A stretch of DNA of 64,000 bases from a virus (IMGVR_UViG_3300033121_002354:49040-113039), one strand, 5' to 3'; counted from the stretch's first letter, positions 48,061-52,111 are shown. Numbers and translations are program-made. Notes: a model not told the origin generated them from the letters alone.

Positions 48061-48873
48061 GTGGTCAAGTGTATGTTGTGTGGTTTTGAATTTAAACAGA
48101 TAACTAGTAGTGGTCATCTACGAAAACACAATATAGATATTGGTGAATACAAAAAGTTGTTTCCTGAAGCAGAGGTAATTTCTAAAGAAATTTGTGAATT
48201 ACGTTCCAAGTTGACAAATGACCGAATCCTTAAAGGAATTCATTTTGTTCCATTTAGAGATATTAAAGGATTGGCTAGAAAAATACACGACCAATACAAA
48301 ATTAAAGACAGACGCGATTTTGAGTATGTTTGTATTAGATGTGGAATTAAAAAGTATGCAGAATGCCGTTCGACAGCAAAGAAAAGAAAATTTTGCTCGA
48401 ACAAGTGTCGCATGTTGCACATTCAAGAGCATGATGAATTACTAAAAGAGTTTTCTAGAAAAGTCAGTAGAGCAACAACCGGAATTCCCAAGAGAGGTGG
48501 TTATAGTCGTGCTCGCGGAGGTGTAAGAGAGGATATAGGACACTATGTCAGGAGCGGGTGGGAAGCGGACATTTGTCGTATTTTTATATATTACAATAAG
48601 CCTTATGAATATGAAAAATATGTTGTGAAGTTACAACACGGCAAAAATAGTCTTACATGGATTATTGATTTTATTGATACACAAAAACATATATCTAACG
48701 GACTGATCGAGGTTAAAGGTTGGTGGGACAAAAAAAGTAAACTCAAATTAAAGTTGCTAAAGAAGCAGTATCCTGATATATATAAGCGGTTGACAATTAT
48801 TGATTTTCACAAAATGAAAGATCTTATTGTCAAATATAAGGGAGTAATTAATGGGTGGGAAAGTTCCAAATAG
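48061..48873 (+). CDS. Zinc-finger PD-(D/E)xK-type endonuclease, putative free-standing homing endonuclease
   Basis: CMLC..HLRKH and CIRC..FCSNKC modules followed by VRSGWEA..YEYE..IDF..IEVKGWW nuclease domain. Confidence 0.7.
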   Translation: MVKCMLCGFEFKQITSSGHLRKHNIDIGEYKKLFPEAEVISKEICELRSKLTNDRILKGIHFVPFRDIKGLARKIHDQYKIKDRRDFEYVCIRCGIKKYAECRSTAKKRKFCSNKCRMLHIQEHDELLKEFSRKVSRATTGIPKRGGYSRARGGVREDIGHYVRSGWEADICRIFIYYNKPYEYEKYVVKLQHGKNSLTWIIDFIDTQKHISNGLIEVKGWWDKKSKLKLKLLKKQYPDIYKRLTIIDFHKMKDLIVKYKGVINGWESSK

Positions 48874-48891
48874 AAAGGGGGTTTTAATACT

Positions 48892-50186
48892 ATGACAATA
48901 AAAAAATCTGATTTCGCTCATTTGCATTGTCATAGTGTTTAGCTCTGCCCCGTCTTAGTGGCGGGGTAGAGCTAACACTAGTTTTTTCAGCATTTGATGG
49001 CTTTTCCCAGATAAAAGATCTTCCTAGAACTGCCAAGTTGCATGGCCAGCGGGCTATAGCGTTGACAGATCATGGTACACTTGGTGGAGCAATACAGTTT
49101 ATAAAGGCATGCAGAGAAGAAAATATAAAGCCAATTTTAGGATCAGAATTTTATTGCAGTCGTAATCGCAGAGCAAAATCAAAAAAGGAACAACCAGAGG
49201 GCAAACGGGGCAATAGACACTTAAATTTGTTTGCCAAAAACCTTACGGGCTATAAAAATCTTTGTACGCTTTCTCAGCGTTCTTATCTTGAGGGATACTA
49301 TTATTCACCAAGAATAGACTTTGAGTTATTGCAAGAATTTAGTAAAGGATTGATTTGCTCAAGTGCGTGCCTCAGCAATGTAATCAACTGGAACCTGTCG
49401 ATAGACAGATATGACCTTGCAAAAAAAGCAGCCACTATTCTCAAGGATATTTTTAAGAAAGATTTTTATCTTGAAATGATGTATCATGGAATGGATACAC
49501 AAAGCAAGATACTTCCATTAATCAAAAAGCTGTCAGTAGAGTTGGATATAAAAACCATTCCGACATTTGACAGTCATTACACAAACAAGGAAGACGCCAA
49601 ATATCAAGAAATAGTGGAATGTATTTCTCAGAAGAGATGTTACAAAGATCCAGACCGATATCATTTTCCTTATCAGGAATTTTATATCAAGTCTACAGAA
49701 GAGGTGTGTAAGGTATTTGGTCACTTACCGCAAACGATCAAGAACACCCAAGAGATAGTAGACAAATGTGATTTGGATGATCTTAAGTTTGGCGGCATGC
49801 TTCTGCCCAAGTTTGATGTTCCCATAGGGTTTGAAAGTGATTATAATTATTTAGCACATCTTGCTTGGGACGGACTTAAGAAAAAGGGAAAAGATAAAGA
49901 TCCAAGATATGTAGAGCGGTTAACTCTTGAGTTGAGCGACACCAAGTTGGTGTGGATAACCAAAAAGCTAGATTTCAAGGCTTACTTTCTTATAGTGTGG
50001 GATTTCTGCAATTTCATGAAGAAAGAGAAAATTCCATATGACGTTAGAGGTTCTGGTAACGGCTCTCTGTTGCTTTGGTGTTTGGGAATAACTAACATTG
50101 ATAGTGTATTGTACGGTTTGAGTTGGCCCCGATTCTTAGGATTTGATTCGGTCAAATATATCTGTTTAGATGATATTGGGTTATAA
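48892..50186 (+). CDS. dnaE: DNA polymerase III alpha, N-terminal subunit (PHP + part of palm), interrupted by a 44-nt insert; join 48892-48939 with 48984-50186 (416 aa)
   Basis: MTIKKSDFAHLHCHSV + FSAFDGFSQIKDL..AIALTDHG rebuilds the HxHSxYSxxDG motif; KPILGSEFY, GYKNL, RGSGNGSL; AAGGGGG SD before 48892. Confidence 0.9.
48933..48983 (+). other. Candidate translational-bypass element (GTT take-off, TAG, hairpin, GTT landing)
   Basis: GTT 48937-39, TAG 48940-42, 21-bp stem 48933-48980 with two G-U pairs, one bulge and a 5-nt loop, GTT 48981-83 in the downstream dnaE frame. Confidence 0.75.
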
Positions 50187-52111
50187 TGGCATTAACTCTA
50201 GAACAAGTTGTTGATATAGCCAAGCTTCATCCAGAGTATGATGAGCAACGTGTTTCTAGTGAGCTAGAATACATAAAAAATAACGACCTTCAAAAAGACT
50301 TCTTGGATGTTTGTGAAGCCGCCCTTGCCAAAGGTCAACCAGGAAGTAAGAATGTTTTAAATTCTTTTGTTTTTTATTTGATACGTATCACTTCCTGCAA
50401 GCCAGTTGACAAATTCGATGTACCCAAACGCAGAGCTTATGTCCGAGATGGCTGGCCTGACGTTGATATAGATGTTTGTTACCTGCATAGAAGTACTTTA
50501 ATTGCTTATGCGAAATCAAAATATGGTGAAGGCAACGTTGCGACCATTGGTACTGTTGGTAAACTAGAAATTAAATCGGCTATTCACAAAGCAATTCTAG
50601 TTCTTGATCCCACCAAGTCTTATAACAAAGAAAACGGATTTGGCAGGAAGCAACTAGAAAGAGATCCTAATTTCCAACTTAAGCAAGAAATATGTGATTC
50701 CCTTCCAAATATTATGAAAAAGGAGGATGGGACACGTATAAGGAAAATCAAAGAGGCTTACGATACTTATCCAGAGTTTAAGAGATATATGGATAAGTAT
50801 CCAAAAATTTACAAGCTTGCTCTTAAGCTTGAGGGTACGATTGCTTCGTATGGCACTCATGCTGCGGGTGTAATTCTCTCTCCAATTCCGCTGGAACAGA
50901 TATGCCCCCTTCATCTTTCGAAAAAGAAAAAAGAAGATGCTCGCAACGATGCCGATGCTTCTGAGAAGTATGAGTGGTGTACTCAATTCACCATGACCGA
51001 TGTTGAAGCAATTGGCTTGCCCAAGATGGACTTCTTAGGAATTTCAACCGAAACGTCCATTGCTCGTTGTTTTGAGACGGTTAAAAAATCATATAACATT
51101 GAACTAGATCGTGATAACATACCCATTGATACACAAACTCTTGAGCTGTTAAACAGAGGAGAAGGGGTTGGCGTATTTCAGGCCGAAACAAGACCGATGC
51201 AAAATGTCATGCGGCAAATCGGCATAGATAGTTTTGAAGATATTATCGCTTGTGTTTCTATTTTTCGTCCAGGTCCGATGCAGTATATTGACCAGTATGC
51301 TGATCGTAAACACGGGAAAGACGAAGTATCTTATTTGCATCCTTTGTATGAAAAAATTGCATCTTCGACATATGCTATCTTGATTTATCAAGAACAGATC
51401 ATGCGAATTTTCGTTGACTTAGCCCAACTAAGTGAAAACGATGGATACAAATTTATTAAGGGTTGTGCCAAAAAGAATCCAAAAATAGTTGAGGCAATGT
51501 TAGAGAAGTTTATTGCTGGTTGTGCTGTTAACAACATATCTCCTAAAATAGCAAAGAAAATTGCTGACGACTTACACCAATTCGCTGGATACAGCTTCAA
51601 CTTAAGTCATGCTACAGGATATGCTAAGAAGAGTGCTACATGTAGTTATTTAAAAGCACATTTTCCTGCAGAGTTTATTGAGGCACGGTTGACGGTTGAA
51701 TATATACGCAAATCTAAAAGCATGGAGATATATAGACAAGAAGCACAAAGAATGGGGTTTAAGATACTTAAACCTGATTTGAATAAGTCTGGAATTGATT
51801 GGCAGATAGTGGATCAGAAAACGCTTTTAGAGCCATTGATAGTAAAAGGTATTGGGGTTGTAGCGGCACAAGAAATTATTAAGTGTAGACCTTATGACCC
51901 AAACAATCTTCTTGTTGATTTTTCTAAGAAAATTGGATTGAAAAATGCATTGCACGTAACCAAGAGAGAGATTGACGGAATGTATTCTGCTGGAATGTGG
52001 CAGGGGTACGGAACAAGGGAAAAGGTTGTGGAAACTTTTGAAAAGGCGAAGGAGTACGGAAAAAGAAACAGGGGCAGACAAATAGGTGGAAATTTATTTG
52101 GCAAACAGTGA
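50186..52111 (+). CDS. dnaE: DNA polymerase III alpha, catalytic subunit (palm/thumb/fingers/HhH; no OB-fold tail evident)
   Basis: WPDVDID, THAAGV, KMDFLG, GVFQ, FRPGPM, IYQEQIM, YSFNLSHATGY, PDLNKS, VKGIG. Confidence 0.93.
   Translation: MALTLEQVVDIAKLHPEYDEQRVSSELEYIKNNDLQKDFLDVCEAALAKGQPGSKNVLNSFVFYLIRITSCKPVDKFDVPKRRAYVRDGWPDVDIDVCYLHRSTLIAYAKSKYGEGNVATIGTVGKLEIKSAIHKAILVLDPTKSYNKENGFGRKQLERDPNFQLKQEICDSLPNIMKKEDGTRIRKIKEAYDTYPEFKRYMDKYPKIYKLALKLEGTIASYGTHAAGVILSPIPLEQICPLHLSKKKKEDARNDADASEKYEWCTQFTMTDVEAIGLPKMDFLGISTETSIARCFETVKKSYNIELDRDNIPIDTQTLELLNRGEGVGVFQAETRPMQNVMRQIGIDSFEDIIACVSIFRPGPMQYIDQYADRKHGKDEVSYLHPLYEKIASSTYAILIYQEQIMRIFVDLAQLSENDGYKFIKGCAKKNPKIVEAMLEKFIAGCAVNNISPKIAKKIADDLHQFAGYSFNLSHATGYAKKSATCSYLKAHFPAEFIEARLTVEYIRKSKSMEIYRQEAQRMGFKILKPDLNKSGIDWQIVDQKTLLEPLIVKGIGVVAAQEIIKCRPYDPNNLLVDFSKKIGLKNALHVTKREIDGMYSAGMWQGYGTREKVVETFEKAKEYGKRNRGRQIGGNLFGKQ

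Follow-up and report, generated by a model that had tools for sequence, protein, structure and literature searches.

A conserved hairpin insert within the PHP motif of a phage dnaE gene, a probable programmed translational bypass

How can a phage build its replicative DNA polymerase from a gene whose metal-binding motif is broken by a stop codon and a stem-loop? The question is raised by the window, a 64,000-nucleotide (nt) stretch of viral DNA (IMGVR_UViG_3300033121_002354:49040-113039) that makes up the final 64 kb of a 113-kb IMG/VR virus record; because CheckV rates its completeness at 23%, the record is probably a fragment of a jumbo-phage genome. The dnaE gene of the window opens with a mini-ORF (open reading frame 1, ORF1) that stops inside the PHP motif, and the remainder of the motif lies in ORF2, beyond an RNA hairpin (Table 1). 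The insert that separates the two parts is genuine: it is conserved as an element of the mRNA, with selection acting on the sense strand. We consider that it is probably a programmed translational bypass, in which the ribosome would hop from a take-off codon to a landing codon, and that it is not homologous to the bypass element of T4 gene 60.

Table 1. Features of the dnaE locus, in coordinates of the window
Feature	Coordinates	Strand	Remarks and basis
270-residue ORF, Ros/MucR-type zinc finger and endonuclease I / PD-(D/E)XK-like nuclease domain	48061-48873	+	Pfam, PHROGs
Shine-Dalgarno (SD)-like site GAAAGGGGG	48873-48881	+	10 nt 5' of ATG 48892; read from sequence
ORF1 (mini-ORF), 16 codons, MTIKKSDFAHLHCHSV	48892-48939	+	ATG 48892, then TAG; covers strand 1 and the H-x-H-x-H-S segment of the PHP motif
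RNA hairpin	48933-48980	+	7-bp outer and 14-bp inner stem; G+C clamp from +11 of the take-off codon
Take-off codon GTT (Val)	48937-48939	+	paired with AAC 48974-48976 at the helix base
TAG stop, in the A site at take-off	48940-48942	+	TGA in the X2 variant, TAA in sister locus L002
Coding gap, 44 nt, proposed to be undecoded	48940-48983	+	read from sequence and relatives
Landing codon GTT	48981-48983	+	directly 3' of the helix; frame differs from that of the take-off GTT, 44 nt apart
ORF2, remaining DnaE N-terminal part (PHP domain, start of palm)	48984-50186	+	resume codon TTT 48984
DnaE C-terminal part (palm, fingers, HhH), separate ORF	50186-52111	+	ATG overlaps the ORF2 stop (TAATG); Pfam

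An earlier sequence-only reading of this DNA had described an SD-preceded ATG with 16 codons before a TAG, a second GTT from which a skip would restore the spacing of the PHP motif, and an ORF track that loses motif residues. The first of these is read directly from the sequence, and AGGAG-type sites are also found ahead of the mini-ORF starts in most relatives. The track is likewise as described: the ORF list opens the polymerase ORF only at TTG 49038, the first in-frame start codon, the segment from 48984 to 49037 having none. The call from 49038 drops the metal-binding histidines. The restored spacing is seen in homologues. In 78 homologous loci without an insert, H-x-H-x-H-[ST] and [YF]-S-x-x-D-G are separated by exactly one codon, and skipping 48940-48983 yields the same one-codon spacing (...HCHSV-FSAFDG...), ORF2 reading TTT TCA GCA TTT GAT GGC (FSAFDGF...) after the landing codon. 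Furthermore, the hop-joined N terminus matches the Pfam PHP profile from its position 1 with 68.1 bits, while the downstream frame alone matches only from position 8, with 51.7 bits. The downstream ORF has a PHP domain match with an E value of 9.5e-37, followed by the start of a DNA_pol3_alpha domain. The junction peptide predicted for the joined product would be SDFAHLHCHSVFSAFDGFSQIK.

The insert is no assembly artefact. It is present in the contigs of sequencing run X1 at about 59x, and a 377-nt contig from run X2, an independent wastewater metagenome of another study, spans 48910-49276 and contains it as well; no contig of runs X3 and X4 aligned to the locus, and no RNA run is listed as containing it. 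The X2 gap is still 44 nt long and carries TGA in place of TAG, 11 more substitutions, one insertion and one deletion; in the 290 nt after the gap, a single change separates X2 from the window. The X2 variant, rebuilt from its differences, folds at -36.6 kcal/mol, and the changes in its stem compensate each other. These data bear on the idea that the DNA between the GTT(T) direct repeats is excised in part of the population, a form of phase variation in which only the excised genomes would express the polymerase. Short direct repeats that flank a palindrome are known deletion hot spots, and intact and insert alleles are interleaved in the tree presented below, as this idea would have it. However, the X1 and X2 contigs hold the insert form only, with no joint across the gap reported; moreover, the sense-strand bias of G-U pairs (see below) points to RNA, and excision of DNA leaves the conservation of both the stop and the landing codon unexplained. 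We regard it as highly improbable.

A comparison of X2 with the window over 48525-48995 further showed that the two are nearly identical past the landing codon and have diverged in the hairpin, the mini-ORF start and the nuclease gene upstream. The mosaic boundary at the 3' edge of the gap suggests a recombination end point between the two. We rejected the contrast between their hairpins as a sign of hypervariability, as it is this recombination boundary; a second candidate for hairpin hypervariability, L104 versus L107, was rejected on the ground that the change equals the neutral rate.

Is the insert peculiar to the window? Protein searches retrieved hundreds of N-terminal DnaE parts from phages, about 400-470 residues in length, and several close relatives show oddly truncated N termini. 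Insert loci were collected from the DNA of such truncated relatives and by protein-alignment scans of viral and metagenome contigs, yielding a survey of 23 distinct loci (the window and 22 further ones), to which the counts given below refer. A megablast of the locus against GenBank phages gave no match, and a scan of viral contigs with a single protein found no relative, whereas the alignment-based scans did. Each of the 22 further loci has its own insert of 36-53 nt at exactly the same site, between H-x-H-x-H-[ST]-x and [YF]-S-x-F-D-G, and the sequences of these inserts are very different. The expectation of the sequence-only reading that relatives would be contiguous at HxHSVFS was thus right for distant relatives, but most of the close ones carry a hairpin of their own, a stronger argument than the one that reading had counted on.

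Could the ribosome cross these gaps by reading through them or by shifting frame? Twelve gaps have a length divisible by three, 4 leave a remainder of 1 and 7 a remainder of 2; an in-frame stop occurs in every gap (23/23), and a path from ORF1 to ORF2 by a single frameshift is open in 3/23. Read-through and frameshifting are therefore excluded as a general route. In the window itself, ribosomes that slipped to the -1 frame at GTT-TAG and then translated the hairpin would add 15 extra residues inside the PHP motif, and the downstream frame indeed has no stop from 48936 onwards, sharing 4-7 nt with the end of ORF1. Yet the site has no slippery sequence, and the tRNA-Val on GUU would have to re-pair on UGU. 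Moreover, this route is blocked by stops in 20/23 loci, 12 gaps are multiples of three, and the extra residues are unconserved and would break a motif spacing that is invariant in the 78 homologues, so that we attach hardly any weight to it. A suppressor tRNA or an alternative genetic code was also rejected: the 17 tRNAs of the record are ordinary, with no suppressor among them, and 44 nt is not a multiple of three.

The two edges of the gap are marked by matched codons. Take-off and landing use the same codon in 11/23 loci (CAG, CAA, ACT, GTT) and synonymous codons in 7 (CAG/CAA, GTT/GTA, TAT/TAC); the two agree at 2 of 3 bases in 4 loci, twice as CAG/TAG with a G-U option at the first position, and match poorly in one. 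Four codon families (Gln, Val, Thr and Tyr) occur at these positions. Where the junction lies one codon earlier (L137 and L155, ACT...ACT) or one codon later (L135, TAT...TAC), the codon match moves along with it. A stop directly follows the take-off codon in 13/23 loci and comes one codon later in 5 more, and the three stops interchange among close relatives while the stem compensates (TAG in the window, TGA in X2, TAA in L002). GGAG or GAGG is found 4-8 nt before the landing codon in about 10/23 loci, though the same bases pair with the His-Ser codons in the outer helix; the window has only GAG, in the 3' arm. Reinitiation at an ATG or GTG of the spacer was tried as an explanation and rejected: the triplet is complementary to a His codon in the outer helix, and is in frame only at chance level.

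Nearly all of the gap is taken up by a single hairpin, as initially proposed from the sequence, with the inner stem starting within the stop codon. The inner stem pairs 48941-48954 with 48960-48973 and begins at the second base of the stop; in the outer stem, 48933-48939, with the take-off GTT in it, is paired to 48974-48980, the bases next to the landing GTT, and a one-base bulge, U48940, is left in the helix. The minimum free energy is -38.5 kcal/mol, compared with -17.6 +/- 2.6 in shuffles (z = -8.1), none of 200 shuffles being as good, and the hairpin is the most stable 70-nt fold of the 113-kb record (record mean -9.6, standard deviation 4.1). No other copy of it and no comparable hairpin was found in the window or in the whole record, and Rfam returned only chance-level matches, none below E = 0.38.

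The helix is conserved in shape across loci of very different sequence. In a plain MAFFT alignment, all 17 of the 17 consensus helix pairs show compensatory changes; paired cells amount to 84%, compared with 59% in shuffles (0/500), and the covariation score is 0.68, compared with 0.24 in shuffles and 0.12-0.22 in slid controls. The two non-Watson-Crick pairs among the 20 counted in the window helix are both G-U, from which selection on RNA had been proposed. Indeed, over the 23 loci, the summed folding energy is -790 kcal/mol for the sense and -643 kcal/mol for the antisense strand, and G-U pairs number 48 in the sense and 10 in the antisense orientation; the selected structure is therefore that of the mRNA. 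The geometry relative to the codons is also kept. In 23/23 loci, the helix has the take-off codon paired at its base. Counted from the first base of this codon, a stretch of G-C pairs begins at +8 to +12 in 20/21 loci, and it ends 13-19 nt ahead of the landing codon in 19/21; the distance from the end of the helix to the 3' junction varies between 0 and 7 nt.

In the window (48939-48990) and in X2, the hairpin is followed by G-TTTTTT, and a scan lists it as resembling an intrinsic terminator. A terminator or attenuator that limits dnaE mRNA, which would be compatible with bypass as an added role, would account for the G+C-rich helix with its T run, a run that X2 keeps. However, the T run is accounted for by the codons for Val-Phe-Ser, the spacers of most relatives are rich in purines and lack such a run, and termination would leave the broken reading frame unsolved. 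We therefore hold this explanation to be rather unlikely.

Both coding parts are under purifying selection. The ratio of nonsynonymous to synonymous changes per site (pN/pS) is 0.21 for the last nine mini-ORF codons of the 23 insert loci, in which synonymous sites are saturated, and 0.23 for the first nine codons downstream, compared with 0.21 in intact relatives; the Ser codon of the mini-ORF even switches between AGY and TCN. Therefore, both halves are translated and needed, which argues against a dead gene.

In a tree of 63 N-terminal parts, all the inserts fall in one clade (23 insert and 13 intact sequences; support of 99 in the Shimodaira-Hasegawa-like approximate likelihood ratio test, SH-aLRT), and the 27/27 sequences outside it are intact. 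Inside the clade, insert and intact states are interleaved, and well-supported branches force at least 7 changes. Such a pattern would arise if the insert had been lost precisely, or gained through recombination, on repeated occasions; palindromes between short direct repeats are deletion-prone, which would favor loss. The correlation between hairpin and protein similarity, 0.01, is saturated and uninformative, and only three close pairs agree. As to its origin, we infer that the element began as a selfish insert that was made harmless by the hop.

Alternatively, the insert might be the scar of a selfish element that is tolerated without any recoding: the gene would be dead or would yield a truncated DnaE from a downstream start, perhaps complemented by the free 16-residue peptide. 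The interleaved presence and absence, with at least 7 changes in the tree, would suit a scar, as would the facts that the polymerase is already split in two polypeptides in this clade and that a nuclease gene adjoins. Against it stands the purifying selection on the mini-ORF and on the codons from the landing site to the first start, which is as strong as in intact genes (synonymous sites being saturated). Furthermore, an in-frame ATG or GTG near the landing site is present in only about 4/23 loci, the chance level, the covariation of the helix indicates that the insert itself is maintained, and this dnaE is the only one in the record. A scar is, in our view, very unlikely.

How, then, might one chain be made from the two parts? 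We combine the observed anatomy of the locus, its conservation and covariation, and the selection on both coding parts in the following model of a bypass. Ribosomes would start at ATG 48892 and build a 16-residue chain. They would stall with peptidyl-tRNA-Val on GTT 48937 in the P site and TAG in the A site, with the G+C-rich upper stem at about +11, at the mRNA entry. The peptidyl-tRNA would then release the take-off codon, the ribosome would slide across the 44-nt gap, and the tRNA would re-pair with GTT 48981 just beyond the helix, so that decoding would resume at TTT 48984. Once the landing codon reaches the P site, the clamp would re-form behind the ribosome, and the product would be a single polypeptide with an intact PHP metal-binding motif. 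The G+C clamp might thus act as a stall at entry and as a ratchet at exit; its spacing on the entry side resembles that at which downstream structures stimulate recoding. A failed hop would cost little, only a 16-residue peptide. The hop may even be driven purely by the hairpin, with no role for the nascent peptide, a G+C clamp of the size of the ribosomal footprint stalling entry and setting the landing site. The proposal of the sequence-only reading, a bypass element independent of gene 60 and probably driven by its hairpin, gains support from the 23 inserts at one site, the stops, the codon match, the covariation and the purifying selection.

Several observations weigh against a hop. An ordinary sense codon occupies the A site in 10/23 loci, in five of which the stop lies 6-14 codons further on, and 5 landing codons are non-cognate. 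The nascent chain has only 12-16 residues, and the mini-ORF is the same as in intact relatives, with no insert-specific signal. Moreover, the 21-bp helix, which the ribosome would have to traverse, far exceeds the take-off stem-loop of gene 60. Insertion could have left the matched codons behind as a target-site duplication, and, with the record 23% complete, a second polymerase or a splicing enzyme may be encoded elsewhere in the genome.

The main rival of bypass is excision at the RNA level, in which the hairpin would be a micro-intron: it would be cut from the mRNA, and an enzyme of the host or the phage, or else the RNA itself, would reseal the ends. If true, this form of mRNA splicing would be without known precedent in bacteria and their viruses. 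Such a micro-intron would be served by the conserved, covarying sense-strand helix, which juxtaposes both junctions, and the direct repeats could again be a target-site duplication; the site is a conserved catalytic motif, as is often the case for introns and inteins, and relatives carry dnaE inteins (P0059). However, splicing needs no stop after the 5' junction, yet 13/23 loci have one, with three stops interchanging. The 3' junction lies 0-7 nt past the end of the helix, at no fixed position, and the unpaired 3' codon copy, though it would be intronic, stays a Gln, Val, Thr or Tyr codon. Furthermore, 36-53 nt is far too small for group I or II introns, for which Rfam gave nothing, and the fold, a continuous helix with a single one-base bulge, has no bulge-helix-bulge. 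No RtcB and no member of the RNA-ligase families was found in the 113-kb record, which is 23% complete. We consider excision of RNA unlikely, and bypass the probable explanation.

The polymerase gene has other peculiarities. The split between its two parts (50184-50188 in the window) falls between the RFLG motif and the PDVDID catalytic motif and is conserved throughout the clade. In one relative (L003:4226-5414), a 68-residue ORF and an AAA_28 ATPase gene are inserted between the halves, which are therefore two polypeptides. Inteins occur in the N-terminal DnaE part of some relatives (P0059, with Hint and Intein_splicing domains); the dnaE gene is a hot spot for selfish inserts. No second dnaE was found in the 113-kb record. 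Two loci of a distant clade (L015:1475-1520 and L026:1475-1520; about 34% identity) also have the PHP motif broken, here by only 5 extra bases that start with a stop: the sequence is CAT TCT TGA/TAA CT GAA TAC, ORF1 ends ...HLHTHS, and another frame continues (T)EYSxLDG. The two loci have diverged but share the break, which might be crossed by a short hop or a +2/-1 shift.

The gene directly upstream encodes a 270-residue protein and ends 18 nt before the dnaE start. Its Pfam matches, PF05367 and PF05443, are weak, and its PHROGs matches are to endonuclease and resolvase families, with E values of about 1e-5 to 1e-6; the protein is possibly a homing nuclease of the free-standing kind. Homologues take the place directly before dnaE in 5/23 insert loci, including the window, and in 1/13 intact loci; relatives with the gene at this position are L132, L137, L155, L157 and L138. 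The other loci have unrelated upstream genes (methylase, intein-bearing methylase, Clp protease, glycosyltransferase). In L109 (15-1334), for instance, the methylase gene upstream of dnaE has an intein that bears a LAGLIDADG domain, and L087 has the same methylase without the intein. The nuclease was considered as a fixed partner of the insert and rejected, 5/23 versus 1/13 being no significant association; its sporadic presence resembles that of homing nucleases. Finally, the 17 tRNA genes of the record lie in two arrays (G000:C1:8477-11882) upstream of the window, and include tRNA-Val(UAC) and tRNA-Gln(UUG), which could read the two codon families most used at the junctions in this clade, GTT/GTA and CAG/CAA.

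Full-text searches of the literature library found no paper that describes bypass in a phage dnaE. Manning and Atkins (bioRxiv 10.1101/2022.08.31.505936) report bypass cassettes only in Topo2L genes, call the cassette unique and mention no polymerase case. Long-range hopping is known from very few natural systems, namely T4 gene 60 with its homologues, the byps of yeast mitochondria and a single Streptomyces phage, and most mechanistic knowledge comes from one cassette. The dnaE element is unrelated, sits in an essential replicative polymerase and comes in more than 20 natural variants, which keep a fixed geometry while the length and frame of the gap, the stop, the take-off codon and the stem sequence vary. 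If the hop is true, a long nascent-peptide signal is unnecessary for hopping, the field gains a ready-made mutational series, and the systematic truncation of such genes by gene callers is shown; the element would also be a second example of a selfish insert rendered harmless by recoding.

Several known systems invite comparison. In the ribosomal shunt of Cauliflower mosaic virus, ribosomes finish a short ORF at the foot of a stable helix and take up translation again just past it. That shunt is a eukaryotic termination-reinitiation event that yields separate proteins from a new start codon, whereas the dnaE landing site has no start codon and a single chain is required. Also comparable are the byps of Magnusiomyces capitatus mitochondria, which Lang and colleagues are said to have described in 2014: reportedly, they are hairpin inserts of 27-55 nt in coding sequence, with matched codons and a poorly decodable codon after take-off, and form a multi-copy mobile family with dozens of members per genome. 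The dnaE element is likewise a short hairpin insert in coding sequence with matched take-off and landing codons and, after take-off, a codon that is poorly decodable; unlike the byps, however, it is single in 113 kb, is fixed at one site of one gene and belongs to the bacterial or phage world rather than to mitochondria.

In the terminase gene of Streptomyces phage phiHau3, bypass occurs at UUA codons and was confirmed by mass spectrometry in E. coli (PMC10732093, which also cites the 2014 byp work). As would be the case here, a phage gene is read across a gap, and predicted mRNA structure brings the landing site near the take-off site (PMC10732093). The gene and the structure are different, though, and the trigger in phiHau3 is a rare UUA codon tied to host tRNA supply, while a stop codon or the hairpin clamp would play this part in dnaE.

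T4 gene 60, with its homologues in the MobA homing-endonuclease element (10.1101/2022.08.31.505936), shares many features with dnaE. In both, the interruption falls within the metal-binding motif of a phage DNA-metabolism enzyme, the codons for take-off and landing match, and a stop follows take-off, with TGA or sense-codon variants. A stem-loop holds the take-off codon and the stop in its 5' arm, and the gaps are of similar size (44 nt here, 50 nt in gene 60); the distribution is patchy, with a nuclease gene sometimes adjacent. A purine tract that may be SD-like precedes landing in about half of the dnaE relatives (only GAG in the window), though its bases also pair in the outer helix. On the other hand, the host domain is the PHP domain of dnaE here and the Toprim domain of Topo2L there, with no sequence homology evident. 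One long helix fills the dnaE gap and joins both codons, whereas gene 60 has a small take-off stem-loop and separate 5' and 3' elements; the dnaE nascent chain has 12-16 residues and no dedicated signal, whereas the 46 codons of gene 60 encode an essential peptide signal. The nuclease is PD-(D/E)XK-like rather than HNH as in MobA, and is present in only 5/23 insert loci, unlike the fixed nuclease-plus-gap cassette of MobA and gene 60. In sum, the dnaE element would work like gene 60 bypassing, outside its homologous family.

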